The position numbers were made by a program, and so were the translations under genes. From the IMG/VR virus record IMGVR_UViG_3300031992_000019: a DNA stretch of 64,000 nt. One strand, 5' to 3'. This DNA is from a virus (taxonomy: Duplodnaviria; Caudoviricetes). The notes beneath the pieces were generated by a model. The model ran no database searches. It saw only the letters and a list, made by a program, of their open reading frames with translations, and was not told the DNA's origin. Positions 3,794 through 23,257 of this stretch are shown in pieces (within the stretch, counting starts at the first letter, position 1; every line of letters starts with the position of its first letter).

Positions 3794-3794
3794 A

Positions 3795-4175
3795 TTAAGT
3801 TGTTCCTTGCGACTTGGATGCGGTGACGTACTTTGTCACATTGTCACGGAGTGCATTACTGCCCCTATCTACCGTGTCATACTTGGTATAGAGAAGACGC
3901 TTTGCGGTATTATTTCCGAGCCTACTCATATTGTAGAGCCTCTGCGCGGTATTCCCAGGCGAGAACTCTGGCTTGAGTCCTCCATCGGAGGCTTTGCTTA
4001 CATCAATCATAAGCCTACCTGCAGATGTCTTGTTCAGCCTCCTCTGCATCTCGTTGCCCAGTGCGCGGTTGATGCGGTTATAGTTGCGACTTCCGTACCT
4101 TGCCCCGTATGTTCTCTCCATACGATTAGACTGCTCTACCAAGTCGTTGATTGATTTCTTTCTTCGTGTTGCCAT
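3795..4175 (-). CDS. MATR-family basic protein
   Basis: MATRRKKSINDLVEQ; ends SQGTT. Confidence 0.87.
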   Translation of the reverse strand: MATRRKKSINDLVEQSNRMERTYGARYGSRNYNRINRALGNEMQRRLNKTSAGRLMIDVSKASDGGLKPEFSPGNTAQRLYNMSRLGNNTAKRLLYTKYDTVDRGSNALRDNVTKYVTASKSQGTT

Positions 4176-4177
4176 AA

Positions 4178-4477
4178 TTAACCTTTGTTTAACCCCCGAT
4201 AGGTGTTCGGGGAGTATTTCCTATTCAACTGCTTGCTGACGATTTCGTCCCTCTTGACACCCTCCGCGCCCGCGAACTTGTCATCAAGCCTACGGAAGGA
4301 CTTCGAGTTGGATATATTCCTCTGGTAGTTCCTCGCGGCGGTCAATGCCCTCCTATATCGCCTGTATATTGGAATGGCAATCTCATCGGGTTGGTTCGCT
4401 CCCCTACTCAATGCCATCGTCCTAATTCTTTCAAGCTGCGCCTCTATGTCGTTTACGGATTTCTTTCGTGTAGCCAT
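4178..4477 (-). CDS. MATR-family basic protein
   Basis: MATRKKSVNDIEAQLERI; RKYSPNTYRGLNKG. Confidence 0.88.
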   Translation of the reverse strand: MATRKKSVNDIEAQLERIRTMALSRGANQPDEIAIPIYRRYRRALTAARNYQRNISNSKSFRRLDDKFAGAEGVKRDEIVSKQLNRKYSPNTYRGLNKG

Positions 4478-4478
4478 A

Positions 4479-4775
4479 TTATCCTTTGTTTAGTCCAACC
4501 GCCTTGGTGGTGTCGGGATTGTTGTAGCCAGTATATTTCTGATTCAAGTTCCTCCACGCCCTCTTTCCGTATTCGGTCGGGGTGGCATCACCATTTCGAG
4601 CCTCCCTCACGCGGTTCAACAACCTTTTCCCAGTCTTGCTATTGTCTATGTTGTTCACATAGTTGGAATATATGCGGTTTATCCGCTCCGCTCTTTCGGG
4701 GGAGGGGCTGTAGTCATACAATAACCTACCGCGCTGAATGGATAGGTCGTTCTTGGATTTCGCTCGTGTCGGCAT
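4479..4775 (-). CDS. MATR-family basic protein (MPTR variant)
   Basis: Start reassigned to MPTRAKSKNDL (downstream of promoter 4797-4805); ends VGLNKG. Confidence 0.85.
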   Translation of the reverse strand: MPTRAKSKNDLSIQRGRLLYDYSPSPERAERINRIYSNYVNNIDNSKTGKRLLNRVREARNGDATPTEYGKRAWRNLNQKYTGYNNPDTTKAVGLNKG

Positions 4776-4796
4776 AACTTTTATTTTTTTTCTGCT

Positions 4797-4867
4797 GCAA
4801 AGATACACACTTATCATATTGTGCAATCAAATACCCATCCGATAGTTTGCACGATAAAAATTTGTGC
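4797..4867 (-). promoter_or_regulatory. Class A promoter
   Basis: TATCTTTGC 4805-4797, TTGATTG element, GCAC-N11-GTGC 4849-4867. Confidence 0.78.
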
Positions 4868-4872
4868 ATAAT

Positions 4873-4900
4873 GTAAACAATTTTCGGACTTGTGCGTTAT
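4873..4900 (+). promoter_or_regulatory. Class C promoter GTAAA-N17-CGTTAT
   Basis: One of five copies with an identical 17-nt spacer, each just upstream of an operon start. Confidence 0.72.
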
Positions 4901-4916
4901 AGAAGAAAAGAGAGTT

Positions 4917-5126
4917 ATGACAGTTTTAGAACAAGAACTTTTAACAATGGCAAAGAGTTTCTTTGCGCACTACAACAAAGAGGGACTGCGTGAGAGAGTA
5001 GCGACACAGGTCTTCTCCAATGTTTACGCGACTTATGACCACATCCCGAGTGAAGAACAGACAAAGAGGCTGGCATCCGAGGCGGTAAAGGCTGCGGACA
5101 TCCTCATTAAAGAGTTGGACAAATGA
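4917..5126 (+). CDS. Hypothetical phage protein
   Basis: ATG after A-rich leader; C-terminal AVKAADILIKEL; coupled to next ORF. Confidence 0.72.
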   Translation: MTVLEQELLTMAKSFFAHYNKEGLRERVATQVFSNVYATYDHIPSEEQTKRLASEAVKAADILIKELDK

Positions 5127-6724: not shown

Positions 6725-7501
6725 CTATCGCTTTGTTGGATGGTTCTGGCGAGATGTATAGTTCCAACCGAATCTCTTGGCTACCCTCTTGTTAAGTTCG
6801 TTGGCCATATATACATCAGTTCTATCAGTGACTTGGGCATCCCAACCCCTTCCTTTACGAATTAACTTCAATCGACCCCTTTGGTGCTCGTGTAATGCTA
6901 TCTCCTTTCCAAGTTTTGCCGCCTCTATTTCATAGGCTCTTTTTACTTGTGCAGGAGTTGCTCCCCATCCGTTTTTCGGTCGTTTGAAGGAGAAAGTAAA
7001 GGTAGGAGTTGCGGCACGCATTTCTGCCGCATTCCAAGCCACCGCAGAAATCATATCGTCTTTGCTGAATGAGTGCCCAATTCCACCGAATCCTTTTTTG
7101 CCTATTGACAAAGGATGGTTGTGAGTCAAAACGATATTCTTCTTGGCTCCGAGCATCATAAGGGCAAGTTGTTCATACTGGTTAGGCTCAACCTTATTGC
7201 CCTTTCCTTGTTTGCTAAAAAGTTTGTTGCCATTCTCATCAAAGACGTGAAGCTGCTCATCGTGAAGATTGCGAGTGTTTTCCTCTACATCTGATAATGC
7301 CTTCTTGAGACCCTCGCTATGACCTACCTCGGTGTCATGCTTGGAAAGTTCCCTTTTAGCCTTCATCTGGACACTTACCGATGGCTTCTCGTACTTTTTC
7401 TTCTTGTCGGAGGCATAGGACAGACTACCGAAGCCTATCTGCGGTTTCGTATAGACCTTCTTCGGTTTCTCCTTGCGATACTTGTAGATTCCTTCTGCCA
7501 T
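6725..7501 (-). CDS. Basic protein with JAB/MPN-like metallo-isopeptidase domain
   Basis: DEQLHVFDENG (upstream Glu) and VLTHNHP...SFSKDD (HxH..SxxD); Lys-rich N-terminus; last gene of a MATR operon. Confidence 0.7.
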   Translation of the reverse strand: MAEGIYKYRKEKPKKVYTKPQIGFGSLSYASDKKKKYEKPSVSVQMKAKRELSKHDTEVGHSEGLKKALSDVEENTRNLHDEQLHVFDENGNKLFSKQGKGNKVEPNQYEQLALMMLGAKKNIVLTHNHPLSIGKKGFGGIGHSFSKDDMISAVAWNAAEMRAATPTFTFSFKRPKNGWGATPAQVKRAYEIEAAKLGKEIALHEHQRGRLKLIRKGRGWDAQVTDRTDVYMANELNKRVAKRFGWNYTSRQNHPTKR

Positions 7502-7502: not shown

Positions 7503-7862
7503 TTATCCTTGGTTTCTACCCATATAGGTGTTACGTGAATACTTGCGGTTCATCCTCTGCCAATAGTATTTTCCCGCCTTTTTCATTATTTTCCTATGCT
7601 TCTCCAACTCTTTGCGCTCCCAAGGTGTAGGTTCGTGGAAGATAAGGTCAATCTTACTGGCTCGGTTAAGTTCGCGATTTTCCTTCTCCCTCGCATTGCT
7701 CGCACTTTTCGTTCTTCGGATATTACCCGAATACCTAAACGTGATGCCCTCGGCACGCCTTGCCCTCTCTCTGCTACTTTCAGTGCCAAGTTCCTCGGCA
7801 AGCCTTTCTATTCGTGCCTGCTGTTCTATCAAGTCTTCTATTGACTTTTTACGTGTAGCCAT
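7503..7862 (-). CDS. MATR-family basic protein
   Basis: MATRKKSIEDLIEQQARI; RKYSRNTYMGRNQG. Confidence 0.88.
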   Translation of the reverse strand: MATRKKSIEDLIEQQARIERLAEELGTESSRERARRAEGITFRYSGNIRRTKSASNAREKENRELNRASKIDLIFHEPTPWERKELEKHRKIMKKAGKYYWQRMNRKYSRNTYMGRNQG

Positions 7863-7866
7863 AGTT

Positions 7867-8304
7867 TTAACCCGCTGAAAGTCCTTTTGATTTCCTTTTT
7901 GCCCTATACTCTGCGCGACTTGACGATGGAAGGGAGTTTATCACCGACCTTGCTTTCTCTGCGGAGTCAATCCCCCATTTGTTTGCATCAATGTCAAGCC
8001 GCTTTCCGTTGCGGAAAATCTCATAGGCATATTTATCTACCCTTTTGACCTCATATCCGTTATGGGAGAAATTGTTGGTGTTATAATCCCTATCAATGGC
8101 AGCTTTCGTCTTGGTTATATCAAACTGGTCACCGATATTCAGGTCGAGGCCTTCTCCATAAGGTGTTTCCACACTATACTGCCTACCGCCATCGGCTGAT
8201 ATGTTGCGTATAGTGTACCCCTTGTAATTCTCACTATAAGATGATGGGGAGATATAAGCCACATCCCCATCGTCACCGCTTGTAAGTCTAATTCGTCTTG
8301 CCAT
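7867..8304 (-). CDS. MATR-related protein (C-terminal tag only)
   Basis: MARR start; ends SSRAEYRAKRKSKGLSAG, as in 8713..9579. Confidence 0.8.
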   Translation of the reverse strand: MARRIRLTSGDDGDVAYISPSSYSENYKGYTIRNISADGGRQYSVETPYGEGLDLNIGDQFDITKTKAAIDRDYNTNNFSHNGYEVKRVDKYAYEIFRNGKRLDIDANKWGIDSAEKARSVINSLPSSSRAEYRAKRKSKGLSAG

Positions 8305-8617
8305 AGTCTAATATGTTATAACCCTCTTCAACGGAAATACCCAAGTCCTCACACCCACACTCAAAACCATAGTTGGTGAATGAGTCGGCATTGAACAAAC
8401 CATTGTCGCCATTGTGGACTTTCGGAAATCCGTTCTGCGTAAGAAATATGAGAACCGATGCACAAGTTGCTTCGTCTATGCTGACAAAAGGATTGAAAAC
8501 GAATCCCTCGCCATTCTTGAACTCAAATGCTTTCTCGCCATAGATGTTGTAGATTGCTCTACCCTTGATGATGTACTCATCATTGAAACACTTGTTGTAA
8601 ATAGTCTTGATGTTCAT
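8288..8617 (-). CDS. Hypothetical acidic protein with class B promoter
   Basis: TATCTTTGC 8653-8645 with TTGGAT boxes; overlaps next gene. Confidence 0.7.
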   Translation of the reverse strand: MNIKTIYNKCFNDEYIIKGRAIYNIYGEKAFEFKNGEGFVFNPFVSIDEATCASVLIFLTQNGFPKVHNGDNGLFNADSFTNYGFECGCEDLGISVEEGYNILDYGKTN

Positions 8618-8712
8618 AATCCAATATATTTATCGTTTGACGCTGCAAAGATATTGGATATTCGTTGGATGTTCAACGAACTATTGTGCAAGTGCCCCGA
8701 ATTTAACATCTT

Positions 8713-9579
8713 TTAACCTGCTGATAATCCTTGCGCTCTTCTGCGTGCGCGATATTCCGCTCTTGAACTTGCCTTTGGTTTGGGTGCTCTCGGTGTGTCG
8801 ATGAGTTTCTGGGCATACCGCCTATCCTCGGCTTCGCGTTCCTTGTCGGCAATGGCACTCATAACGTCCTTGAGTTCGCTTGGTCGGATTCTCAAGTCGC
8901 TATGCCGTGTCCTTGTGCGCTCCCCATCAAAATAATGCTCCGCTGGGATGGTTTTACCCCTTTCAAGTTCATCAAGCGAGATAGCTTCGTCTCCGTCAGT
9001 AGAATCACCTTGCCAATAGACATTCGCCCAGTATCTTCCCTTGTTGTCTTGATAGACACTATCTATGCGATGATTCCAGTTGAACTTCGTGTCTATACGT
9101 CCCGTGCGCTTGTCAGGTTGAGAGGACACATACCGCTTCAAGGCATCCATTCCTCCGTTTCTTAATCTCTCGGAGTTGGTGTGTTCGCTTTCGGGGACTC
9201 TGTTAGACCTACGGAGTTCCCTCGCATAGGCATCCACATCACTCACGCCAGTTCGCGTGGCTCTATCCACCTTGAAATCGTCGTTGTAGGCAAGGGGAAT
9301 GCGGTCGTACCTTCTTTCGTAGCGATTCCACTCCTCGCGCACACTCGTTACTGGCGACTTCTTTCTTGTGGTGTTGAGATAGGAATTTGCAGTTCGTCCA
9401 GCATTCCTCACCCTTCGCTCCATATCGTAGGTGTGCGGATTGTAGTCATTGGTGTCCCGATAACCGCTCTCCCTCCACTTGCGTATCTGGGAATCGGTCA
9501 TACCGCCAAGCCTACCGATGCGCTCTATCTGCCTAACGATGTCGTTGTAGGACTTTCCCCTTTGTCTTGTCTTTGCCAT
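8713..9579 (-). CDS. Long MATR-family protein with internal cargo domain
   Basis: MAKTRQRGKSYNDIVRQIERI; ends SSRAEYRARRRAQGLSAG. Confidence 0.85.
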   Translation of the reverse strand: MAKTRQRGKSYNDIVRQIERIGRLGGMTDSQIRKWRESGYRDTNDYNPHTYDMERRVRNAGRTANSYLNTTRKKSPVTSVREEWNRYERRYDRIPLAYNDDFKVDRATRTGVSDVDAYARELRRSNRVPESEHTNSERLRNGGMDALKRYVSSQPDKRTGRIDTKFNWNHRIDSVYQDNKGRYWANVYWQGDSTDGDEAISLDELERGKTIPAEHYFDGERTRTRHSDLRIRPSELKDVMSAIADKEREAEDRRYAQKLIDTPRAPKPKASSRAEYRARRRAQGLSAG

Positions 9580-12291: not shown

Positions 12292-12329
12292 AAAAAAATA
12301 GAGATGACACCGAAATGCCACCTCTATTG
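12292..12329 (-). terminator. Intrinsic terminator of the MATR/ParB/PP-loop operon
   Basis: Minus strand ATAGAGGTGGCA-TTTCGG-TGTCATCTCTAT followed by a T run. Confidence 0.75.
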
Positions 12330-12348: not shown

Positions 12349-12927
12349 TTAACCAGTTGATACTGCGCGGTAGGGTGCTGGACGACCGTTGCCGCGTCCT
12401 GTGAGTGCGGTGATTTCGTCCTCGGATGCTCCGTTTGCCCTCAATGTGGCTTCGAGCCTTGCGAGTGCTTCGGGTGAACGCTTGTCGTTGTTCAAGCCTA
12501 CCCTTACGTAATAGTCGCGCTGGCGGCGGTTGGCTTCGCTTGTCATCCTTCCGTTTTCGCCCTTGCGTGTGCCGCTCTGCCTCTTGTTGCCCTTGGAGTC
12601 GAGAACTGCCGTTCCGTCATCGTTCTTCGGGGTGAAGAGGTTGGTCTTGGCGTTCTTGGTGTCCGTTCCAATGAGCCTTCCGTTCTCATCGCGCTTGGCT
12701 ACCGCCAGTTTGCCGCCCTTTGAGGTGGTGGAGTCTGCGGTGTACCTTCCGTCCTGATAGTTCTGGTTCATTGCGCCCATAGAGGAACGTCCATCGGTAC
12801 GGGTGTGGTAAGGAGTGTTGCCGACCTTCGTCACGTTATAGTGCTTGACCTTGACACCCTTGCCCCTCAACTTCTCGTCGAGTTTCTGCCCGAGTTCTGC
12901 TGTCCTTTTCGGTTTTCGTGTTGCCAT
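12349..12927 (-). CDS. Long MATR-family basic protein
   Basis: MATRKPKR; NRRQRDYYVRVGL; ends RAVSTG; own class A promoter. Confidence 0.85.
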   Translation of the reverse strand: MATRKPKRTAELGQKLDEKLRGKGVKVKHYNVTKVGNTPYHTRTDGRSSMGAMNQNYQDGRYTADSTTSKGGKLAVAKRDENGRLIGTDTKNAKTNLFTPKNDDGTAVLDSKGNKRQSGTRKGENGRMTSEANRRQRDYYVRVGLNNDKRSPEALARLEATLRANGASEDEITALTGRGNGRPAPYRAVSTG

Positions 12928-12955
12928 ATTATTTAGTTAATTTAAGTTTCACGCT

Positions 12956-13026
12956 GCAAAGATAGGGGTTTATTCCTCTTCGCAATCATTTTCATCCGTT
13001 TCACTTTGCACTATTCTTTGTTGTGC
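12956..13026 (-). promoter_or_regulatory. Class A promoter (box lies inside the 3' end of the PP-loop gene)
   Basis: TATCTTTGC 12964-12956, TGATTG, TTGCAC-N11-GTGCAA with core 13008-13026. Confidence 0.78.
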
Positions 13027-13707
13027 AAGTTTCCTTCTCTCCGCTTCGTCATACTCAAAGAGAATAGTCCTCGCAAACGGAAAGACTTCGTAGATTTTCA
13101 GCAGGTCTTGGGGGTAGTTCTCCCTCAACCAGAGAAAGCAGTCCTTCGAGAATCCCACACCCGATGATGCCTTTAACGAGTACCTCACGGGTTCGGGGAT
13201 GCCCCTATTCTTCATATACAAAAGAATCTCCTTCTGCGTCCAGCTCGCCAACGGATAGACCAGACCCTTGTTGATGTAGTCGCTCTCCTTGTAGGTGTTG
13301 AGCATAAGCCTTCGGTTCATCGAGTCGGCTTTCTTCATACCCAAGAAGACATACTCCACATTATAGGTCAGCCTTATCGTCTTTATCACGTCGTCCAACT
13401 TAATCAACTTGACATTCGGGTCGGGTGCGCAGTAGAGTCCGCTCCTCAATACATAACTTAACGTCCAATGGGGGATTTCCACGAACTCTATATTCGGATA
13501 TCTCGCCTTCGTCCAGTTTATCCATCTTTGGATGTGGTCTAACCCCTTGACGAAATACATGAAGAAACACACTATCCTATTGAATTTCGGATAGCACAAG
13601 TCCAAGGTCACGAGGGAGTCCTTTCCTAACGACAGTCCTATCGCTATCGTGTCGGTCTGCTCCCTCACCTTGTCAATGACCAGATTGGCTTCTTGCAGCT
13701 TGTTCAT
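12970..13707 (-). CDS. PAPS-reductase-like PP-loop (adenine nucleotide alpha hydrolase) protein
   Basis: GLSLGKDS PP-loop, GMKKADSMNRR, YPLASWTQKEI. Confidence 0.88.
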   Translation of the reverse strand: MNKLQEANLVIDKVREQTDTIAIGLSLGKDSLVTLDLCYPKFNRIVCFFMYFVKGLDHIQRWINWTKARYPNIEFVEIPHWTLSYVLRSGLYCAPDPNVKLIKLDDVIKTIRLTYNVEYVFLGMKKADSMNRRLMLNTYKESDYINKGLVYPLASWTQKEILLYMKNRGIPEPVRYSLKASSGVGFSKDCFLWLRENYPQDLLKIYEVFPFARTILFEYDEAERRKLAQQRIVQSETDENDCEEE

Positions 13708-13910
13708 CCCACACCCATATAAGTGGTTCGCGAATACTTCTTGTCATACGCATCCCTCCCCTTGAATGAAGGGTGCTTGATGATGTTGTCCGTGTATCGG
13801 TCTGCCGCAATGTTCGCCCTGTCCACACGTTCCTTGGTGGCGCGTGGGTGGTTCTCAATCCTCTCTGCTTGCGCGAGGATGTCGGAAAAACTTTTCTTTC
13901 GTGTTGCCAT
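13704..13910 (-). CDS. Minimal MATR-family protein between ParB-like and PP-loop genes
   Basis: MATRKKSFSDILAQAERI..RYTDNI..KKYSRTTYMGVG; overlaps both neighbours. Confidence 0.88.
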   Translation of the reverse strand: MATRKKSFSDILAQAERIENHPRATKERVDRANIAADRYTDNIIKHPSFKGRDAYDKKYSRTTYMGVG

Positions 13911-14731
13911 TACTCTTCGTCTTCAAATGAATCGTCAACCAGTGGTTCGCATCGCATCTCGAAGTCCTCCCCCTTGATTGTACGGCTATAAGGGTCGTAG
14001 TTGAATTTCTGGCAGAAGGCGGCTTTCGCGTTGAAGGTGGAGAAACTCAACACGAGGAAGGCATCCATATTCTGCGCGTTCTCGACGGCTTGCTCACGGA
14101 CTTGCTGCTTGACATCCTTCATGTGCTGCACCCTCTGCTCCCTCGTCATCTCCTCCTGTGCAAGTCTTTCGGCTTCCTTTGAGGCTTCGCGGATGGCGGC
14201 TCTCTCGGCTTTCTCCTGCTCATGCTGCTCGTTTACTGGAGCCATAAGGTCATCCAAGGCATTTCGCGTGTCTGACTGCCCAGCCGTCTTGTAGAGGTCT
14301 TCCAAGCCAATCATTGAAAGGTCGGCTTCGGTGAGTCCAGCATCCTTGTAGTCGATGTCGGGAACGATGGCGGCTAACTTGTCGAAGTCCCACTGCCCTT
14401 GCGCGTTGGGGTTGTTCAAGAGGATAAGGAGCGCATCCGCATCCTTCTTGTCCAAGTCCACCACATCGCAGCGAATCTTGTAGTCGGTTTCGGGTGTGCC
14501 GTCGTACTTCTGAATCTCGTCCATGATGGTGAGTCGCTGGTGTCCAGAGAGGAGCGTGTAGCCGTACCTCTTGTTTACAACGATACCTCCCACCAGACCG
14601 AACTTCTTGATGCCCCTCTTGAGCTTCTTCTTGGATTCGGGGTCGATACGTCTTGGGTTGTTCTCGCTGAATTGGATTTCGGAGCGCATCAGTTCGATGT
14701 TCTCCGAGGTGAAAAGTTCTGATAGTTGCAT
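13910..14731 (-). CDS. ParB/Srx N-terminal domain protein
   Basis: NPRRI, KKFGLVGGIVVN, LLSGHQRL, LNNPNAQGQWD. Confidence 0.88.
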   Translation of the reverse strand: MQLSELFTSENIELMRSEIQFSENNPRRIDPESKKKLKRGIKKFGLVGGIVVNKRYGYTLLSGHQRLTIMDEIQKYDGTPETDYKIRCDVVDLDKKDADALLILLNNPNAQGQWDFDKLAAIVPDIDYKDAGLTEADLSMIGLEDLYKTAGQSDTRNALDDLMAPVNEQHEQEKAERAAIREASKEAERLAQEEMTREQRVQHMKDVKQQVREQAVENAQNMDAFLVLSFSTFNAKAAFCQKFNYDPYSRTIKGEDFEMRCEPLVDDSFEDEE

Positions 14732-14751
14732 TGTGTTTGTGTATTTAGTGA

Positions 14752-15024
14752 TTAACCTTCGTTTCCAGCACGCGCGGAGTAAGACCGCTTGGTCTCATAA
14801 GCCTTGTTCACGGCTTGCCCAGGCATCATACCGCTCTCCACGTTACGTTTGTACTCCCTCTTGACCCTTTCCGAGTTGTTGATGTTTGAAACGTACCTTT
14901 GGGCGATGGCTTTTGCCCTCTTGAGCCACGGGTTGTTGGAGTCATAGTTCTCCACCGCGTTCTCCGCAATCCTGTTGTACTGGTCTATGATGTCCTTTGC
15001 GGACTTTCTCCTACGTGTTGCCAT
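14752..15024 (-). CDS. MATR-family basic protein
   Basis: MATRRRKSAKDIIDQYNRI; RYVSNI; ends AGNEG. Confidence 0.88.
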   Translation of the reverse strand: MATRRRKSAKDIIDQYNRIAENAVENYDSNNPWLKRAKAIAQRYVSNINNSERVKREYKRNVESGMMPGQAVNKAYETKRSYSARAGNEG

Positions 15025-15025: not shown

Positions 15026-15304
15026 TTATCCTACTCCCATATAAGTTGAACGGGAATACTTCTTCGTGTTGATTTTCGCGATGTCCTCAAAGCTCGCGTT
15101 CTCGCCTTGGCTGGCTACATTCCTATAACCGCTCTGCTTGGCGATGTTTGCCGCATACCTCTTATATGCGTCCTTGATGCGCTTATCCCTCGCGTCAAGC
15201 ACCGCAGCTTGTGACGGGTCTTGCACCCACCTCCTATTTATCGCATTGCGAATCCTCAATGTCTGGTTGATGAGGTCATCCAAAGATTTCTTTCTTGTTG
15301 CCAT
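15026..15304 (-). CDS. MATR-family basic protein
   Basis: MATRKKSLDDL; KKYSRSTYMGVG. Confidence 0.88.
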   Translation of the reverse strand: MATRKKSLDDLINQTLRIRNAINRRWVQDPSQAAVLDARDKRIKDAYKRYAANIAKQSGYRNVASQGENASFEDIAKINTKKYSRSTYMGVG

Positions 15305-15305
15305 A

Positions 15306-15602
15306 TTATCCGTTGCTCAATGCCCTCGTTGTCGATGCGTTCTGATAACCCGTGTACTTCTTGCGATAGCCTTCTGCTGCGATAGTCCCGTAGGTCTGAC
15401 TCATAGGTAATATCGTTTTTTTGAGCAGATTCTTCTGGCTTCTCGTACCCACGATGTTCTCGCGATACTTGTCACTGATGTCGTATGCGCGGAGTGCCCT
15501 ATTATAGGCGCGTGGTGTACCAAGTTTTATTGCGAGTGCTCCAATACGCAGCCTCTGTCTGGTAATATCTTCCAGTGACTTTGCTCTTTTTCTTGTTGCC
15601 AT
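15306..15602 (-). CDS. MATR-family basic protein
   Basis: MATRKRAKSLEDI; ends ALSNG. Confidence 0.88.
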   Translation of the reverse strand: MATRKRAKSLEDITRQRLRIGALAIKLGTPRAYNRALRAYDISDKYRENIVGTRSQKNLLKKTILPMSQTYGTIAAEGYRKKYTGYQNASTTRALSNG

Positions 15603-15604
15603 AA

Positions 15605-15928
15605 TTAGCCTCCGTTTTTACCCATGTAGGTGGATTGTGAATACTTGCGGTTGCGATAAGCATCATAAAACCTATCTGCATCCTCGTAGTTCTTGTTCTT
15701 ACGGGCTTCCTCATACTTAGCCATCATCTTACGGACATAAGGAGACCGCTTGATGATGTTTCGAGTATAATGAGGTTGTGTGAGTGCATTGTATTCCCTA
15801 TTACGGGTGCGATTCAATGCCTCCTCGTCATTGTTCCTCTCGTAACGACCTTGTAATTCCGCCGAAAGGTCTTCTATACGATGCCGTTGGTCAATAATGT
15901 CCTGAATGGATTTCTTTCTCGTTGCCAT
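15605..15928 (-). CDS. MATR-family basic protein
   Basis: Start reassigned to MATRKKSIQDIIDQ; RKYSQSTYMGKNGG. Confidence 0.88.
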   Translation of the reverse strand: MATRKKSIQDIIDQRHRIEDLSAELQGRYERNNDEEALNRTRNREYNALTQPHYTRNIIKRSPYVRKMMAKYEEARKNKNYEDADRFYDAYRNRKYSQSTYMGKNGG

Positions 15929-15929
15929 A

Positions 15930-16346
15930 TTATCCTTGTGATAAACCTTGTGACTTGCGGCTTTCTCGGTATAGTTTCCGTTGTGCCGCACGATACGTGT
16001 TGTTAAGTTCACTCTCCGATGCCTCAGACTTGAACCGCCAAGTCCCGTTTGCGCCGTACTCCGTCTTGAGGTTGGTATTCAACCCTTGTCGGGTGGCTGC
16101 GTTGTTAAGCATCCTCCATAGGCGTTGACGTTCAATGTCCGCTTTCCTCTCGTTTCTCAAGGTCCGGTTGTACTCGGCTCTCGCCCCTCGCGCCCTACCC
16201 TTCTTGTTGGTGAACGCATCCCTCAAGTCCCGATGAAAAGTGTTGTTGATTCTGCGGTTTCCCGTCAAATCGCCTGCATAAAGCATATTTACAAGCCTTT
16301 CATATTGCGCTTGTTTCTCGGCTCTCGTCTTTTTTCTCGTTGCCAT
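15930..16346 (-). CDS. MATR-family basic protein
   Basis: MATRKKTRAEKQAQYERL; ends KSQGLSQG. Confidence 0.87.
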   Translation of the reverse strand: MATRKKTRAEKQAQYERLVNMLYAGDLTGNRRINNTFHRDLRDAFTNKKGRARGARAEYNRTLRNERKADIERQRLWRMLNNAATRQGLNTNLKTEYGANGTWRFKSEASESELNNTYRAAQRKLYRESRKSQGLSQG

Positions 16347-16352
16347 AATAGT

Positions 16353-16400
16353 TTACTTTCCGCAACCCTTGCCTTTGCCCTTACCTTTCTTCTTGCACAT
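16353..16400 (-). CDS. Micro-peptide MCKKKGKGKGKGCGK (15 aa)
   Basis: Fills the gap between two MATR genes with 4- and 6-nt spacers. Confidence 0.6.
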   Translation of the reverse strand: MCKKKGKGKGKGCGK

Positions 16401-16404
16401 AGTT

Positions 16405-16761
16405 TTAAGTGTTTGAGTTAGACTTCGATGCTATGCCCATTCGCTGCTCACGGGTAGCCGATGCTCCCTTGTAGGCTGCGAAAGCCACGTTATCTCCATA
16501 CCCCGCTGCTCGCGCGGTGTTCCTTTCGTAGTTGTCACGCGCATTGCGCACACGCGCCATCCTTTCACCCAACTGGTTGGTTCGGGCGACTGAACGCCCA
16601 TATCCCCTCGCCTCCCAAGGGCTGCGGTAGTTTCTCCGATACTCGGCTTCTACACCCCTCTGGAAGTCCTTCCTTGCTCCCCACTCCCTATCAAGGCTGG
16701 TGAGAATCCTATTGGCTTGCTCGGTGATTTGCTGAATAGTTTTCCTTCGTCTTGTTGCCAT
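16405..16761 (-). CDS. MATR-family basic protein
   Basis: MATRRRKTIQQITEQANRI; ends SNSNT. Confidence 0.87.
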   Translation of the reverse strand: MATRRRKTIQQITEQANRILTSLDREWGARKDFQRGVEAEYRRNYRSPWEARGYGRSVARTNQLGERMARVRNARDNYERNTARAAGYGDNVAFAAYKGASATREQRMGIASKSNSNT

Positions 16762-16762
16762 A

Positions 16763-17119
16763 TTACCCGTTACTTGCGGCTTTCGCTGCGTTAGTGTTAT
16801 AGTTCACATACTTGCGGTTGTCCATCTTGTCGTAGTACCGATAGGCTTTTTCATCCTCATCCCAATATTTTTCTTCGTTGTCATCCATAAACGCCTCGTA
16901 TTTCGCCGCTTGTGCCTTATTAACCCTTTGCAGGTCGCGCTGGAAAGTGGATGAACCAGTAATGTTGTTGTTATACTCCCTTGCTATGTTACGCGCCCTT
17001 TCCAATCTTCCTTGGTTGCGCTCCCTTTCCCTTGCATAGGGTGAAGTTGCGAGTAACTTGATTCTTGCAACTTGTCGCCTTATGTCAGCGAGGGATTTCT
17101 GCCTTTTCCGTGTTGCCAT
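16763..17119 (-). CDS. MATR-family basic protein
   Basis: MATRKRQKSLADI; RKYVNYNTNAAKAASNG. Confidence 0.88.
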   Translation of the reverse strand: MATRKRQKSLADIRRQVARIKLLATSPYARERERNQGRLERARNIAREYNNNITGSSTFQRDLQRVNKAQAAKYEAFMDDNEEKYWDEDEKAYRYYDKMDNRKYVNYNTNAAKAASNG

Positions 17120-17123
17120 AACT

Positions 17124-17384
17124 TTATGTGTTAGAACCCGCTGCGGTGGCTCTCGTGTAGATTTCCTTGTCGAACTTCCTATCGAGCCTATCCTCTACGG
17201 GGGTGTTCTTGTTTTCCCTATCTATCGCGTTGTTTATGTTGTTGCGATACCTGTTCGCGATTCTCTCAACCCTCCTGTTCCACCTTTCTATGCGGTGTCT
17301 GTCCGCACTCTTCGGGTCAACTGGTCGGATGAGCCTCTGCATCTGCTCGAACAAGTCCCTTATGGATTTTCGTCTTGTTGCCAT
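17124..17384 (-). CDS. MATR-family basic protein
   Basis: Start reassigned to MATRRKSIRDLFEQ; ends AAGSNT. Confidence 0.87.
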   Translation of the reverse strand: MATRRKSIRDLFEQMQRLIRPVDPKSADRHRIERWNRRVERIANRYRNNINNAIDRENKNTPVEDRLDRKFDKEIYTRATAAGSNT

Positions 17385-17397: not shown

Positions 17398-17519
17398 GCA
17401 AAGATAGCCGTAAATATTCCTCTCCAATCAAAATTCTTGTCTCTCTTTGCACTTGTTTTTATTGTGCAATAATACGGGGGATTTAATTCCTCTCCTTTAT
17501 GAAATGTGCCTATCTTTGC
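17398..17519. promoter_or_regulatory. Divergent class A promoter pair sharing one box
   Basis: TATCTTTGC at 17406-17398 (-) and 17511-17519 (+); TTGCAC-N11-GTGCAA core 17449-17467 at offsets 43 and 44. Confidence 0.82.
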
Positions 17520-17532
17520 ACCAAAAAAAGAC

Positions 17533-17811
17533 ATGGTGACAGAACTAACTTTCACGAAAATAGAGAACGGGTACGAATCCCAAGTGGTAACGGTGACCAG
17601 CGACTTCAACCTCCACCTTGAAAGGGAGAATAGGGGCGCGGTGTATATCTTCCAGAAGACGGACGGAAACAAGTTCGGGTACGGCACATCGTTTGACGCG
17701 GGGAATCTATGGAAAGACCTCGACGTTGACCTTGACGCAAGACTCTATCCCAAGGACATAAAGATTGTATCTTCAAGCGCGGTATTTTACGGCAGCATTT
17801 CGCAAGAATGA
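17533..17811 (+). CDS. Hypothetical virion-associated protein
   Basis: First gene after class A promoter; beta-rich. Confidence 0.68.
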   Translation: MVTELTFTKIENGYESQVVTVTSDFNLHLERENRGAVYIFQKTDGNKFGYGTSFDAGNLWKDLDVDLDARLYPKDIKIVSSSAVFYGSISQE

Positions 17812-17975
17812 GACATCTATCGGGATATAACAAATTAGGAAGAAACCTTTCGCGGGTACTGACAAGACCAGACATCCTTCTCTCCGAACAAAAGAGGGAA
17901 AGGTTCTATCTTCTCGACTCCGAGGGGTATAGATTGAAGGATAGTGACGGAAATTATTTAATGGTAAATGGATAA
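17808..17975 (+). CDS. Small protein (55 aa)
   Basis: Hand translation ends LLDSEGYRLKDSDGNYLMVNG; overlaps both neighbours. Confidence 0.6.
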   Translation: MRHLSGYNKLGRNLSRVLTRPDILLSEQKRERFYLLDSEGYRLKDSDGNYLMVNG

Positions 17976-18288
17976 GACTCTAACACGCAAGGCTGCGGAC
18001 ATAGATAGGATTCTTTCAAAAGCCGACTCCATACAAGCCACGTATGACGGAAGTGTCTGCTCGATAACCTACAACGCGGCTAAAACCGCGATAGACAACG
18101 GAAGGGATGTGACCATAACCTACAATGGACGTAACTACATCTACTCCAAGTTCTCAAACAACACCCTTTTCTTCGTCTGCGCGGACAACAACCTACATTA
18201 TCTTACCGCCACCCAAGACGGATGGCAATCCTCGACAAGGAAACTCCTTTTTGCGGAGGACGGGGAAAACACCTATAACGACTTCTAA
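17968..18288 (+). CDS. Tail-fibre adaptor-like protein
   Basis: Ends NTYNDF, like 58230..58682 (NTFNDF). Confidence 0.65.
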   Translation: MDKTLTRKAADIDRILSKADSIQATYDGSVCSITYNAAKTAIDNGRDVTITYNGRNYIYSKFSNNTLFFVCADNNLHYLTATQDGWQSSTRKLLFAEDGENTYNDF

Positions 18289-18289
18289 T

Positions 18290-20482
18290 ATGGCAAAGGA
18301 ATTAAGAATACGCGATGAGCAAGGCAATCTGCTCTACCCAGTAACCGTTACCGACCTCGTTTTTGACGATTCTACGGGTAAAACCGCAAAGGAACAACTT
18401 GCAGAGAAGCAAGATACCATCAGTGACCTCTCCACCATTCGCAGTGGAGCATCTGCTGGTGCAACGGCATATCAAAAGCCGAGCGGAGGAATACCCAAGA
18501 CCGACCTCGCAAGTGCGGTGCAGACATCATTGGGGAAGGCAGACACGGCATTGCAAACTCATCAAGACATCAGCGGAAAGCAAGATGTCCTCGTGTCTGG
18601 AACTAACATAAAAACTGTAAACAACACTTCTCTGTTGGGAAGTGGCAATATTTCTATCCCAAAGGGAGACCCAGGAGAGGATGGTACAGATGGCGAAGAT
18701 GCCTACCAACCTTTCAAAGGTTGGTTCGATTCTTCCTCTGCCCTATCTGCGGCCTATCCTTCCCCACAGGTGGGAGATTTCGCCTATGTGAAGGGTGCTA
18801 CTTCCACTGACCCCGTTGCTATCTACGCTTGCGCTACGGCTGGCACTTGGGCAGATAGCGGAAGCGAGTTCAACCCTGCCAACAATCAAGAGTTCGGTAG
18901 CGGTGAAGCGTTGAACGTGACCAACATTGTCGATAGTCTTACTTCGACAAATGCCCACGATATTCTGTCAGCCAAGCAAGGTAATGTGCTTGACCAAAAG
19001 GTAGCCGCTTTAGGCCTGGATTTAGGTGAGGTCACTGATGTAATCAAGCCGCAGGATACGAATAATGTTTTCTACATAATTGATGGAAACGGCAATGTCA
19101 TAGCACAGATTGACTATGAAGGACTAAAGACGATAGCTTTGTTTGTCAAGAATGGAGAGGGGGAGTTGCAAAATATATTAGACCTCATCCCAGAGCCTTC
19201 ATCTTCCGACATTGCTGACATACTTTCGGATTACTATACTGCAAGCCTCAAGGTATCTGACAAGTTTGGTAATGTGATATTCAACATTGACCAAGATGGC
19301 GTTGAATACATCAGCAAGATGGGAAGTTCACACTTCCTTTACAAGAAGAAACTTGTAACTATATGTGACAGCCTTGGAGCTGCAAGTCAATGGCAGACAC
19401 GCTTGGCAAAGATAACGGGTGCAATATATGACAAGACCAAGAATGATAACAGGCACTCATTCGGAGGAACTACCACAATAAGTTCAAGCCAAGTGTGTGG
19501 TCAGGATAGGGCAAAGTTGATTGTATCTGATGAGATTGACCCCGATGTAATCATCATAGAGAATGTCAATGACAGTGCGTATATGTCAAATGTGGGGAGC
19601 GACGAAGATGTAGCCTTCTTCAAGGCATCGCAATCACTTTTGGACGTTACAAGCCAAGCATCGTCTTCTGACGCAGAAACCTATTGGACAAACAATTTCT
19701 CTACAATCGTAGGTGGCCTTACACCAACCATAGGGAAGGTAGTCGGAATCCCATTTACTCAAAGCAATGCCGTAAAGCTGACCATAACTGGAGCAGCAAC
19801 AGCAAGTGGAGAGTTCGGCATAACATTGAGTGGGACAGGCGTAGGAAAGCAGAGCATAAGCGTATCTGCTGGCGAGAGCGTTTCTTCCATCATATCGAAG
19901 ATATACGAATATGCTTGGAACAACTTTGTATGCACATATTCGAACAATGTGGTCACATTTACTCCCACATCTTCATCTGCCACTCCTACGATAACCATTG
20001 ATGCTGGAGGAACGGGAATCACCTCGACAACTGCAACAGGGCAGACTGGCAGCAATGCCGTTTGGAAGTATTTTAACAGCCACGACGCAAGTGATTGGGA
20101 TGACCCGACAAAATGGGTGGACAATATCTCTTTGTGGGCAGCATGGAAAGGTCTTGTCGAGTATCTGCAAGGCCAGTTTCCAAATGCGTATATCTATTGG
20201 TTTATCCCAAAGACCTACAATTTTGACTATACAAGCAGCTCATACAAGAGGGCTGATGGCACGATAGACTATGATAAAGTCCTTTCAGAGAAGGATTATG
20301 CAAAGTCATTGTTCACAGCGCAACTTGCATTTTGCGAATACTACCAGATACCTGTGATTGACATTCGCAACGAGAGTTGTATTACTCCTGCCAATATAGC
20401 GGAATACTGCAACGTGAACAACGTGCATCCCAAACAGGCGGCCTATGACCGATGGGCAGATGTGATTGCAAAGATTATGTAG
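18290..20482 (+). CDS. Tail fibre/spike with SGNH-hydrolase (esterase) domain
   Basis: Start MAKELRIR..YPVT; fibre repeat; collagen-like PKGDPGEDG; ICDSLG, ENVND, NNVHP blocks. Confidence 0.8.
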   Translation: MAKELRIRDEQGNLLYPVTVTDLVFDDSTGKTAKEQLAEKQDTISDLSTIRSGASAGATAYQKPSGGIPKTDLASAVQTSLGKADTALQTHQDISGKQDVLVSGTNIKTVNNTSLLGSGNISIPKGDPGEDGTDGEDAYQPFKGWFDSSSALSAAYPSPQVGDFAYVKGATSTDPVAIYACATAGTWADSGSEFNPANNQEFGSGEALNVTNIVDSLTSTNAHDILSAKQGNVLDQKVAALGLDLGEVTDVIKPQDTNNVFYIIDGNGNVIAQIDYEGLKTIALFVKNGEGELQNILDLIPEPSSSDIADILSDYYTASLKVSDKFGNVIFNIDQDGVEYISKMGSSHFLYKKKLVTICDSLGAASQWQTRLAKITGAIYDKTKNDNRHSFGGTTTISSSQVCGQDRAKLIVSDEIDPDVIIIENVNDSAYMSNVGSDEDVAFFKASQSLLDVTSQASSSDAETYWTNNFSTIVGGLTPTIGKVVGIPFTQSNAVKLTITGAATASGEFGITLSGTGVGKQSISVSAGESVSSIISKIYEYAWNNFVCTYSNNVVTFTPTSSSATPTITIDAGGTGITSTTATGQTGSNAVWKYFNSHDASDWDDPTKWVDNISLWAAWKGLVEYLQGQFPNAYIYWFIPKTYNFDYTSSSYKRADGTIDYDKVLSEKDYAKSLFTAQLAFCEYYQIPVIDIRNESCITPANIAEYCNVNNVHPKQAAYDRWADVIAKIM
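18434..18528 (+). repeat. 95-bp perfect inverted repeat, copy 1 (partner 54954-55048)
   Basis: Base-by-base identity to the reverse complement of 54954-55048. Confidence 0.9.
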
Positions 20483-20503
20483 AATTATAAATATCAGAAT
20501 ACT

Positions 20504-21349
20504 ATGGTTTTTATACTTAAAGACGCTGATTTTTCGGCAAACAATGTGGGAACGATAGAAATTCCCGTAGAGCTTAATGAAGAGACGCTGGCTATTCTTG
20601 CCAAGACAACAAAGTATAGCGAGAGTTCTTCGCAGACTTTAGCACTTGATGCGTTCATTACAGCCTTGAAGCGCAATGGCTTGTGGTCAAAGATTGCCCT
20701 ATTTGTGCCTACATTTATGGCAGCATCTACAACTGAAATGGCTTACGATGTCATCAGTGACGCATATCTTGTATGGACTAACGCTGGCACATACAATTCT
20801 GCCAATGATACCTATGCCTCTGCATCGAAGTATGGTTCTTATGTGACTATTCCGCAGTTGAAGGCCATTGACAACTTCCATTTGCATTTCAAGAAATCTA
20901 CTTGTGCATTGTCGATAGATTCCAACAAGATTAACATTGCAATAGGCCGTTACTATAACACGAACTATCCAGGTGTGAACGTGGGTACATTCAACGTGAA
21001 CAAGAACTATTACGATGCAGAATTGTCATACTACAATTATGGTAGAGGTTTGTTTAATTTGAAGTCTGCCAGTCTTGATTCTGATGGGAGTAAGTTCTAT
21101 GGCCATGACCATCAAGGCGAACTTGAGTCTTGCACATTGACACAGAGTTCGACCTATGATGCTGGAGTGGTATCTAATTACAGCCTCTCAACCAAGATGA
21201 TAATCGGTTATCATGATACAAGTGCTAAAACTATCAAGCAGGAGTTTCACATTATCGGTAACACAGCATTAACGGATTCAGAGGCTACGGCATTGATTGA
21301 GGCAGCCCACACACTGTTTATCTCGCTTGGCGGTGAAGATGACAACTAA
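20504..21349 (+). CDS. Putative receptor-binding/fibre partner protein
   Basis: N-terminal KDADFSANN motif shared with 59825..62113. Confidence 0.68.
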   Translation: MVFILKDADFSANNVGTIEIPVELNEETLAILAKTTKYSESSSQTLALDAFITALKRNGLWSKIALFVPTFMAASTTEMAYDVISDAYLVWTNAGTYNSANDTYASASKYGSYVTIPQLKAIDNFHLHFKKSTCALSIDSNKINIAIGRYYNTNYPGVNVGTFNVNKNYYDAELSYYNYGRGLFNLKSASLDSDGSKFYGHDHQGELESCTLTQSSTYDAGVVSNYSLSTKMIIGYHDTSAKTIKQEFHIIGNTALTDSEATALIEAAHTLFISLGGEDDN

Positions 21350-21366
21350 TCCAATTAGAGAAGACT

Positions 21367-21513
21367 ATGGAAGAAGATTACAAAAACAACCCCATCTATC
21401 AGCAAGGTTTGAAGGATGGCTACAAGAAGGCTCTTGCCGATTTTCGTGAAATGCTAACAAAAGTGGAGGTGAATCACGAGATTGAAATCGGTGTGGTAGC
21501 ACGAACACTTTAG
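21367..21513 (+). CDS. Small hypothetical protein (48 aa)
   Basis: YQQGLKDGY motif; hand translated. Confidence 0.5.
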   Translation: MEEDYKNNPIYQQGLKDGYKKALADFREMLTKVEVNHEIEIGVVARTL

Positions 21514-21521
21514 ATTTAAAT

Positions 21522-21662
21522 ATGGAAGAATTAACTGACTATCAAAAGGGAATGATAGATGCTGTTTGTGGCATTATCGAACTCATCTTTGAGGAGTGTG
21601 ACGAACCTGCAAGGAAAATCATCTTTGAGAAGATTGAAAAGTTCAGACCCTCACCTAATTAG
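21522..21662 (+). CDS. Small hypothetical protein (46 aa)
   Basis: MEELTDYQKG..; hand translated. Confidence 0.5.
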   Translation: MEELTDYQKGMIDAVCGIIELIFEECDEPARKIIFEKIEKFRPSPN

Positions 21663-21741
21663 AGCCCTAAAGCGGTTAGGCATCCTGCCAACTTCTTGGT
21701 AGGGGAAGCGGGGTTATAATAAACAAAAAAACTAAAAAATT

Positions 21742-22083
21742 ATGAAAGATTTAGAAAAATTAAAAATTGAACAAGTAGAGCTGAAAGAAAAGCTAATACG
21801 ACTGATTGACTTCATGAACGGCGAGGAGTTCGCTGGTCTTGATGGCACTGAAAAGGGACTTCTTGCAAGCCAGAGGGCAGGCATGGAGGTATATCTCAAT
21901 GCTCTTACACAGCGGATTTATGGGACTAATGAAGCTCGCGTGGAAACGATGCTACCCATCATGATGATGAGTCTGTTGGGTTCTCCATTTGGCGCATCAT
22001 CACAGAAGATTCCGCCTTTGCCTGAAAGCCTTGTGAGCCAACAGGCAAAAGATAGCGGCTCGCAACCATTACAGACATCGTAA
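21742..22083 (+). CDS. Small coiled-coil phage protein (crAss001_48-like)
   Basis: L..F.....F..L...E..LL..Q...M..Y...L..RI pattern. Confidence 0.65.
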   Translation: MKDLEKLKIEQVELKEKLIRLIDFMNGEEFAGLDGTEKGLLASQRAGMEVYLNALTQRIYGTNEARVETMLPIMMMSLLGSPFGASSQKIPPLPESLVSQQAKDSGSQPLQTS

Positions 22084-22177
22084 GCCCTAAAGCAGCAATG
22101 TTCAGTTGTTCACTTTTTCCGAACAAGTGGTTGGTCGGGATTCCCGACTGACCACCATAAAAGAAAACTTAAAACTT

Positions 22178-22456
22178 ATGGAAGAAAAAGAACAAAAAGA
22201 TAACCTCGAGGAATTGATTGAATCGTTAAGACCAGATGACAAAGCTCACGAGGAATGGATGCGGTCAATGCTGGAGAAACTCGCACCTCTTGACCCCAAG
22301 GAATTGGCCGACCACAATGCGAAGATTGAAGAGGTCAAGTATTGGAGGGAGTTTGAGGGTAATGTATTTCTTGAACTGCTTCGACAATATCCGCAAAATG
22401 ACATTGATGACCTGCTTAACCTGACGAAATATGTCATTGAGGTATTAAAGCGATAA
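22178..22456 (+). CDS. Hypothetical protein
   Basis: ATG after A-rich leader. Confidence 0.62.
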   Translation: MEEKEQKDNLEELIESLRPDDKAHEEWMRSMLEKLAPLDPKELADHNAKIEEVKYWREFEGNVFLELLRQYPQNDIDDLLNLTKYVIEVLKR

Positions 22457-22549
22457 AATGGCACAAGACGTTGTGCAAGTCCAAGGCGCAAGCCTTTGCG
22501 CTCAAATCGCGCCTTGGGCGATTTATAGACCCTTTTAATTAACTGATAT

Positions 22550-23257
22550 ATGATTAGCGAGCAACTGAAAAAAGATGCCGAGGGTTTCATCAAGAACGTG
22601 GAGTCCGAGGCTTACGCGAAAGCGAAAGAGGCTTTCGACAAGCAGGTAAGTGACATCATCGCCCAGCACGACAAGGAAATCGTGTTAGAGAGGGATAGGT
22701 CTTACAACGAGGGGTTCGAGGACGGCAAGAACTCCCAAGTCGAGACTCCCGAGATTTTCCCACCCGTTACCTTTGCGGACGGCACGGAGTATCTCGCGGA
22801 CGAGACGAGGCTTGTCACATCATTCACCTACTCGCGTGTGTTCAAAGCAACCACGTGGGGGACAATCATCCTCCCCGTTTCCCTTCATTATTCCGACTGG
22901 TCAAGCAAGTTCGAGATTGCGGAGATTGTGGGAGTGGAAGTAAATAATGGGAAAATCTACGCGAAGAGAAATGTCCTTGGAGTGGGGTCGCAGACTCTTC
23001 CCAACACCCCCTATCTCATCAGGGCGAAACTCACCAGCAATACCCCTCAAGCCATCACCAAGAAAAACTGCCTTATGTTCCCCGCCGAGGAAGGAAAGGT
23101 GGTGATTCAGTACAAAGGAAAGACCTACACCTTCAAGGGTTCGTATCTCACAATGACATCCGAAGACCTCGCAGGGAAATACTATTCGAGCGGAGGGTAC
23201 TTCAAGGAGGCTACCTCTATCCTTAAACCAATGCGTGTTTATCTTGAAATCGAATGA
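22550..23257 (+). CDS. Hypothetical protein with Bacteroidales surface-protein-like beta domain
   Basis: WGTIILP, PNTPYLIR, FKGSY, LKPMRVYL motifs; N-terminal coiled coil with YNEGFEDG. Confidence 0.7.
   Translation: MISEQLKKDAEGFIKNVESEAYAKAKEAFDKQVSDIIAQHDKEIVLERDRSYNEGFEDGKNSQVETPEIFPPVTFADGTEYLADETRLVTSFTYSRVFKATTWGTIILPVSLHYSDWSSKFEIAEIVGVEVNNGKIYAKRNVLGVGSQTLPNTPYLIRAKLTSNTPQAITKKNCLMFPAEEGKVVIQYKGKTYTFKGSYLTMTSEDLAGKYYSSGGYFKEATSILKPMRVYLEIE

Follow-up and report, generated by a model that had tools for sequence, protein, structure and literature searches.

Pairs formed by a protein of the 3'-phosphoadenosine 5'-phosphosulfate (PAPS)-reductase family and a ParB-like protein include IbrA and IbrB of E. 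coli, which are among the systems closest to the pair described here; IbrA carries an extra DUF3440 domain. Carriers ending in glycine are the rule in TtuA/NcsA-type systems, where TtuB and Urm1 bear the reactive group on the C-terminal glycine, and E1/ubiquitin-like conjugation includes the Bil systems and Cap2 of the cyclic-oligonucleotide-based antiphage signalling system (CBASS), which conjugates the C-terminus of the cGAS/DncV-like nucleotidyltransferase (CD-NTase). In phosphorothioation by DndB/DndC and by BrxP of type 4 bacteriophage exclusion (BREX), a ParB-superfamily protein and a PAPS-reductase-like ATP pyrophosphatase act on DNA (PMC12839542; PMC11662687). Cap9, a PP-loop enzyme of the QueC type, modifies its partner protein on a flexible terminal tail that contains glycine, and a corresponding modification of a partner's tail by QatC is inferred (10.1101/2025.04.06.647259; PMC13279940). 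We compared these systems with a gene module located at positions 12349-15024 of a 64,000-nucleotide stretch (hereafter the window) of the phage record IMGVR_UViG_3300031992_000019 (Duplodnaviria; Caudoviricetes), which corresponds to bases 77836-141835 of the complete record of 165,288 bp of a large gut phage. The module has three parts: a PP-loop ATP pyrophosphatase, an always-adjacent ParB/Srx-like protein, and one to many small, very basic proteins with a glycine at the end of their C-terminal tail. In this 165-kb phage, the third part is expanded to about 20 paralogs, the MATR proteins.

All the genes of the module lie on the minus strand. The ParB/Srx-like protein (13910-14731; 273 amino acids, with an acidic C-terminal tail), recognized by its PHROG matches and conserved motifs, is followed by a minimal MATR protein (13704-13910; 68 amino acids, basic, C-terminus ...YMGVG), supported by its open reading frame (ORF) and an AlphaFold2 (AF2) model, then by the PP-loop ATP pyrophosphatase of the PAPS-reductase clade (12970-13707; 245 amino acids), assigned by PF01507 and fold comparison, and by a basic protein of 192 amino acids with a MATR head and the C-terminus ...AVSTG (12349-12927), placed by BLASTP. 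The initial annotation of this DNA had described the first three genes as overlapping at their start and stop codons and as flanked by further MATR genes, and both descriptions were confirmed. The ParB-like stop and the MATR start have one base in common (...GAG TAATG GCA...), and the MATR stop and the PP-loop start have ATGA in common (...GGA TGA / ATGAAC). The 192-amino-acid gene flanks the three on the downstream side, and a MATR paralog of 90 amino acids ending in ...GNEG (14752-15024) is located directly upstream of the ParB-like gene, preceded by seven more paralogs (15026-15304, 15306-15602, 15605-15928, 15930-16346, 16405-16761, 16763-17119 and 17124-17384). The distance from a stop to the next ATG in the run 15026-17384 is mostly one to two nucleotides, the exception being a gap of 58 nucleotides (16347-16404). 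A terminator-like hairpin with a 14-bp stem and a T run (12297-12328, minus strand) closes the operon unit 17384 to 12349, after the 192-amino-acid gene. Because the tightly packed minus-strand gene run goes from 17384 down to the small and the large terminase genes, the module stands at the head of the DNA-packaging block.

We then examined the co-occurrence of the three gene types in loci drawn from IMG/VR, assemblies and JGI metagenomes, which come mostly from Bacteroidales phages and therefore do not count as independent of one another. Adjacency of the PP-loop and ParB-like genes was without exception, both in 80 of 80 IMG/VR loci (PP-loop proteins 60-68% identical) and in the prophages of different Bacteroidales species (54 of 54). 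Wherever the flanks of a MATR homologue could be used, in all three sources, the homologue accompanied these two genes; at the one apparent exception (L001), the PP-loop gene is located about 4 kb beyond the retrieved flank. MATR homologues devoid of the enzyme pair, which the initial annotation had named as a finding that would speak against its proposal, were thus not encountered wherever the flanks allowed the test. An adjacent small ORF on the same strand ended in glycine in 98 of the 101 loci having the pair, and comparison of distinct small ORFs showed a terminal glycine in 84 of 194 next to the pair and in 54 of the 771 located in other parts of these loci (Fisher p 4e-31, the loci not being phylogenetically independent). 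In the 54 prophages, the glycine-ending neighbour was found 39 times with an ATG start and 12 more times with a GTG start; the 15 prophages that seemed to have no such ORF mostly carry a GTG-start ORF ending in ...GLG(L/M)S(G/S)G, and one ends in ...GLSAS.

The ORF located directly upstream of the PP-loop gene ended in glycine in 134 of 150 loci, its stop usually being 0 to 4 nucleotides from the ATG of the PP-loop gene and its tail reading (F/L/M)-G-(L/M)-(S/N/T/A)-x-G. These upstream peptides form a family distinct from MATR, with the consensus RRQ(R/Q)Y..(V/I/L)R..(F/L)G(L/M)S.G, the last five positions of which are common to both families. The 192-amino-acid protein of the window (12349-12927) is homologous to the peptides encoded ahead of the PP-loop gene in relatives (BLASTP E 4e-5 to those of L146 and L128). 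The order of the ParB-like and PP-loop genes is inverted between the window and L002, and the ParB-like gene is on the opposite strand in three other loci (L006, L108 and L111), while the glycine-tail genes are still present in all of them; the association of the pair with these genes survives rearrangement. The results of these comparisons sustain the proposal that the three gene types belong together, since the pair is invariably adjacent and a basic ORF ending in glycine nearly always adjoins the start of the PP-loop gene. The three genes are strongly linked, and the parts almost certainly work together because the three-part set opens the packaging genes of hundreds of Bacteroidales phages.

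Three cultured relatives were compared with the window. In Bacteroides phage BS-TP2, gp53 (53 amino acids, ending in ...GSNG) directly precedes the PP-loop protein gp54 and the ParB-like protein gp55, which are followed by the large terminase. The pairs gp54/gp55 of BS-TP2 and gp33/gp32 of Riemerella phage RAP44 belong to the same families as the pair of the window, with the same adjacency and the same position ahead of the small terminase, large terminase and portal genes. Pairs of this type have one to four tail proteins, their small ORFs being annotated as hypothetical or not at all, whereas the window has about 20. In Lactobacillus phage LR1, a Firmicutes phage, the PP-loop protein is 28% identical and a basic ORF of 141 amino acids ending in ...GKSSG overlaps the PP-loop stop; it is followed by a gene labelled 'nuclease' by the depositor (a label only) and by the small and large terminase genes. 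A DNA-level search of the phage collection gave one unannotated relative only, and a literature search on PP-loop/ParB-like pairs near terminases found no functional study.

The scan for the pattern MA(T/K)(R/T)(R/K) gave 18 ORFs, to which the tails added 4479-4817, 7867-8304 and 40799-41164, for about 20 members, all of them in the window and none elsewhere in the 165,288-bp record. Their consensus is MATRKKS..DI..Q..RI ... RY..NI ... RKYSRSTYMG..G. An exhaustive profile search led to a family of 584 clusters at 50% identity, 136 of them with E up to 1e-10. The terminal glycine was present in 131 of the 135 new 50%-identity representatives (97%), and the tail of the family reads RKYS(Q/R).TYMGL(S/N).G, with conserved positions at -5 (G), -4 (L) and -1 (G). 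Since GGA, GGT, GGC and GGG are all used in the window to encode the terminal glycine, selection acts on this residue at the protein level.

The AF2 model of the 68-amino-acid MATR protein (predicted local distance difference test, pLDDT, 92.4) contains helices at residues 8-19, 26-45 and 61-65, and residues 6-7 pair with residues 58-59. The model predicts with confidence a helical mini-domain that is not ubiquitin-like. The pairing of residues 6-7 with 58-59 around two helices makes the conserved head and tail of MATR proteins two halves of a single mini-domain, into which the variable middles are inserted; the earlier view of head and tail as two free tags was not borne out by this model, which folds both together. 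The 68-amino-acid protein had no Pfam, PHROG or NCBIfam family above noise, and its matches to DUF6847 (E 0.075) and DIP1984 (E 0.0042) were rejected as noise of helical regions. No known fold was matched by Foldseek against the PDB (best E 2.7) or by a VIA-wide comparison (best Z 5.8), and the ESM Atlas returned helical-hairpin look-alikes only by shape and no usable match by features. Two members of the family, P0044 (166 amino acids) and P0051 (125 amino acids), contain two matched stretches each, which suggests tandem-fused MATR copies. The 68-amino-acid protein that separates the ParB-like and PP-loop genes is also present on other contigs (P0011, 99% identical).

The PP-loop protein matched the Pfam family PF01507 (PAPS_reduct) with 36.1 bits for a cut-off of 22.5 (36.2 bits in the whole-genome search) and phrog_424 with E 3.8e-21. 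Alignment of 14 homologues showed that the PP motif S-x-G-K-D-S is conserved (S26, G28, K29 and D30 are invariant and S31 nearly so), that C47 is the sole invariant cysteine and C190 is nearly invariant, and that this alignment contains neither the C-terminal catalytic cysteine motif of CysH (ECGLH type), nor a cysteine triad for an iron-sulfur (Fe-S) cluster, nor the DndC-specific cysteine dyad. The score against NCBIfam cysH was 13.6 bits for a cut-off of 165, and among the sequences of the PDB there were only weak matches, to CysD and CysH. The AF2 model (pLDDT 85) has the adenine-nucleotide alpha-hydrolase fold, and its closest fold by VIA is the PAPS domain of flavin adenine dinucleotide (FAD) synthase (Z 13.5, root-mean-square deviation 3.0, 154 residues aligned), followed by CysD (Z 12.9), adenosine 5'-phosphosulfate (APS) reductase (12.5), MesJ/TilS (12.4), NcsA (12.3), LarE (11.8) and Cap9 (8.8); TtuA, including the TtuA-TtuB complex, was also among the nearest folds. 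The top matches, through LarE, span about two Z units, and no single nearest enzyme emerges. In the families of the nearest solved folds, sulfate, phosphate, carboxylate or base carbonyls are adenylated, either as the reaction itself or as a step made use of. The general statement that PP-loop enzymes activate their substrates by adenylation holds for the class, as oxyanion activation. Because the PP motif is invariant, the CysH motif and the Fe-S triad are absent and the nearest folds are spread over several enzymes, the protein is predicted to transfer the alpha-phosphate of ATP and does not appear to be the product of a sulfate-assimilation gene.

The ParB-like protein matched phrog_9353 (E 2.6e-75), phrog_620 (E 8e-21) and phrog_723 (E 7.7e-12), the last two being annotated as 'ParB-like partition protein', as well as phrog_498, the ParB-N of DNA methylases (E 1.9e-20), and its score against Pfam ParB_N was 15.1 bits, below the cut-off of 26.3. 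The motifs R-S...N-P-R, G..GG and S/G-G-(H/N)-Q are invariant in 13 homologues, with N25-P26-R27, G45..G48, G63 and Q65 as invariant residues, and the NPR and GHQ(R/K) boxes are kept. Comparison of the pair with the described ParB-like/PAPS-reductase-like systems showed that the DUF3440 domain of IbrA is missing from the PP-loop protein of the window, for which Pfam reports PAPS_reduct only at E up to 0.1, and that this protein is devoid of the DndC-specific cysteines and Fe-S features. General family scans of the operon proteins gave no counterpart of DndA, DndD or DndE, and the Dnd systems are not known to have a family of glycine-tailed peptides, whereas the module of the window has one.

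The best single explanation of the module, to which we give a probability of roughly 40%, is that the PP-loop enzyme activates the carboxylate of the terminal glycine and that the ParB-like protein couples the reaction to DNA; it is preferred on the grounds of the gene neighbourhood, of a last residue that is conserved to an extreme degree, and of the chemistry of the enzyme class. The glycine-tailed proteins would be protein partners, and most probably substrates, of the PP-loop enzyme, which would adenylate their terminal carboxylate with ATP, oxyanion adenylation being the class reaction of the superfamily. The acyl-adenylate would then be resolved by a nucleophile, for which ammonia, sulfide and an amine of DNA or of a protein are candidates. 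The ParB-like protein would link the reaction to phage DNA while packaging takes place. E1/ubiquitin-like systems are alike in having a dedicated protein with a C-terminal glycine and an acyl-adenylate entry step, which is the step proposed here, but the module of the window has no ThiF-type E1, no Prok-JAB and no beta-grasp protein, and its candidate activator has a different fold; a search of the 165-kb record with E up to 0.1 gave no match to ThiF E1 (PF00899) or Prok-JAB (PF14464). A bolder version, which we consider doubtful, is that the PP-loop enzyme, assisted by the ParB-like protein as its DNA-binding partner, adenylates the C-terminal glycine of these basic proteins of non-ubiquitin fold and, as packaging proceeds, ligates them to phage DNA or to a protein of the virion or the host. 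Equally doubtful is its corollary of an E1-independent conjugation that would be widespread in gut Bacteroidales phages and would have about 20 payloads in this one.

Several observations weigh against activation of the glycine. The pair of RAP44 (L098) is accompanied by a basic ORF of 44 amino acids (4860-4994, unannotated, between gp34 and the PP-loop gene gp33) that ends in ...NGAI and not in glycine, and some members of the MATR family terminate in threonine, serine or lysine. In the AF2 model the conserved ...KYSR.TYMG is within the fold, leaving three to six residues free after it, and the 192-amino-acid protein holds the RRQR.Y.VR.GL motif internally (residues 132-145) and not at its end. 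A close relative, L005 (10892-12443; PP-loop protein 98% identical), has no 68-amino-acid MATR gene wedged in the pair, its ParB-like and PP-loop genes overlapping directly. Since most of the sampled loci are those of Bacteroidales phages, much of the co-occurrence could be due to shared descent. The precedent of Cap9 and QatC has the reverse polarity, in that a small-molecule carboxylate is activated and attacked by the N-terminal amine of a protein (10.1101/2025.04.06.647259; PMC13279940). Two co-folding runs of the PP-loop protein (alignment A5) with ATP, Mg and the 68-amino-acid MATR protein (A6) gave an ipSAE of 0.00, which speaks neither for nor against binding. The initial annotation had proposed a C-terminal-glycine ligation system, which is partly supported: the three-gene association on which it was built is upheld by the neighbourhood counts and the conservation of the tail. 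The position of the MATR gene between the two enzyme genes varies, as L005 shows.

Nearly as likely as activation of the glycine is a non-covalent partnership, in itself possible rather than probable, in which the pair would act alone on DNA or nucleotides, as an IbrA/IbrB- or DndB/DndC-like modification system or as a packaging accessory, and the glycine tail would be a docking signal. The basic proteins would then, still tentatively, be DNA-binding, DNA-condensing or virion-packaged proteins whose tail docks to the capsid, the portal, the terminase or the ParB-like protein. The composition of the glycine-tail proteins (19% K+R against 6% D+E) agrees with this, as do the acidic tails of both enzymes, which could bind basic partners, and the location of the glycine-tail genes anywhere between the PP-loop gene and the small terminase gene and not just beside the enzyme. 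About 20 paralogs with differing middles, including an HExxH insert, suit cargo with a common address tag, and the modelled MATR fold is a clasp that receives inserts. A ParB-N domain is often found as part of a fusion with a phage DNA methylase (phrog_498), so that the pair could be directed to DNA independently of the small proteins. A docking signal, however, does not obviously need the exact terminal glycine that is kept in 97% of diverged members, and the tight stop-start coupling is specific to the PP-loop gene.

Two other explanations are improbable. In the first, the polarity would be that of Cap9 and QatC, the PP-loop enzyme transferring a small-molecule carboxylate or a nucleic-acid group to the N-terminus or a lysine of the small proteins, or the small proteins merely regulating the enzyme. 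In its favour, this is the mechanism published for a PP-loop enzyme and the tail of its partner (10.1101/2025.04.06.647259; PMC13279940), the structural comparison detects Cap9 as a neighbour (Z 8.8), and the N-terminus of MATR proteins (MA-T/R-R/K-K-K-S) is strongly conserved. On the other hand, the peptides encoded just ahead of the PP-loop gene in most relatives have a conserved C-terminal tail but no conserved N-terminus, and the enzyme falls in the PAPS-reductase clade and not in the QueC clade. Cap9-CdnD (deazaguanylation in type IV CBASS) and QatC-QatB are QueC-family systems of bacterial defence that act at an N-terminus, where an amine attacks the activated carboxylate of a 7-deazaguanine, whereas the module of the window combines a PAPS-reductase-clade enzyme, a conserved C-terminal glycine and a phage packaging operon. 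Its sole Pfam family is PAPS_reduct and its partners start with MA(T/R)(R/K)K and have their glycine at the C-terminus, which sets it apart from the Cap9/QatC group.

The second of these, which we judge just as unlikely, is synteny in the absence of a common function, in which genes of anti-defence or regulation would merely have gathered where the late operon begins. Positions of this kind are hot spots for small accessory genes, the wedged MATR gene is missing in L005, and loci hold anything from a single copy to about 20. Against this stand the conservation of a single tail motif over unrelated bodies and families, the near-universal presence of a glycine-ending ORF directly upstream of the PP-loop gene, and the repetition of the pattern in a Firmicutes phage. 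Least probable is a sulfur relay, in which a thiocarboxylated glycine tail would be the sulfur donor of a PP-loop thiolase whose substrate is DNA or RNA (TtuA/TtuB- or LarE-like), because, although the enzymes of TtuA-TtuB, NcsA-Urm1 and LarE are among the nearest folds (NcsA, LarE and TtuA, including its complex with TtuB), the PP-loop protein of the window differs from these thiolases in having no conserved Fe-S cysteine triad, its MATR partner is helical and not beta-grasp, the phage has no E1/ThiF, and twenty different carriers would be pointless.

The PAPS-reductase-like and ParB-like genes are among the commonest unexplained gene pairs opening phage packaging operons. The PP-loop gene is often taken for an auxiliary gene of sulfur metabolism, and the absence of the reductase cysteines together with a dedicated family of glycine-tail proteins argues for other experiments. 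The glycine tail offers a simple experimental handle, a mass shift on a protein of 40 to 100 amino acids, and Bacteroides phage BS-TP2, Riemerella phage RAP44 and Lactobacillus phage LR1 are culturable relatives. Should the tail prove to be activated and transferred, the module would represent a new route of protein conjugation and perhaps a new way in which abundant gut phages modify DNA or virions; should it be a docking tag instead, it would mark a large set of candidate packaged proteins.

The remaining glycine-tail genes of the window, all on the minus strand, are located between the operon unit and the terminase genes, except for one. The second group (7503-9579) consists of a MATR gene (7503-7862) and of two genes with larger bodies and the tail ...GLSAG (7867-8304 and 8713-9579). 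The outlying gene (40799-41164), recognized by its tail, codes for a protein of 121 amino acids; far from the cluster, it ends in ...YREHRKAQGLSAG, the same tail as that of 7867-8304 and 8713-9579. The third group (2070-4817) has seven paralogs, including a protein of 181 amino acids with an HExxH zincin-like insert (3248-3793), for which Pfam gave weak matches to Peptidase_M91 (E 0.001) and SprT-like (E 0.011); this protein ends in ...LIVG, and a relic MGLN... tail is in frame past its stop. The member at 4479-4817 ends in ...VGLNKG, and its longest ORF begins upstream of an internal MPTRAK head. A JAB-like reading of the gene directly after the MATR gene of the second group (6725-7501, minus strand, 258 amino acids) was rejected, as Pfam, NCBIfam and PHROG gave it no support. 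The block ends with the small terminase subunit (1217-1957, minus strand; phrog_309, E 6.6e-25) and the large terminase subunit (3-1220, minus strand; PF03237, 42.8 bits), the gene of which runs past the edge of the window in a frame of 570 amino acids.

Upstream of the MATR block and separated from it by a plus-strand tail-fibre block (17506-24830), a minus-strand gene at about 25040-25333 is homologous (E 4.8e-28) to the gene found ahead of the peptide/PP-loop cassette in relatives, which is annotated as 'ASCH' in BS-TP2. An ASCH 'eraser' was considered and dropped, Pfam finding no ASCH domain in the genome and assigning neither the product of this gene nor gp52 of BS-TP2 to ASCH. In a pig-gut phage with the module (L008), genes for Amidoligase_2 and GATase_4 proteins (15630-17130) are located just after the portal and head genes. 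The large terminase is about 770 amino acids long in L007 (14121-16439) and L001 (12869-15175) and 429 amino acids long in the relative L006, and the product of L007 holds the intein-type domains Hom_end_hint and LAGLIDADG_3.

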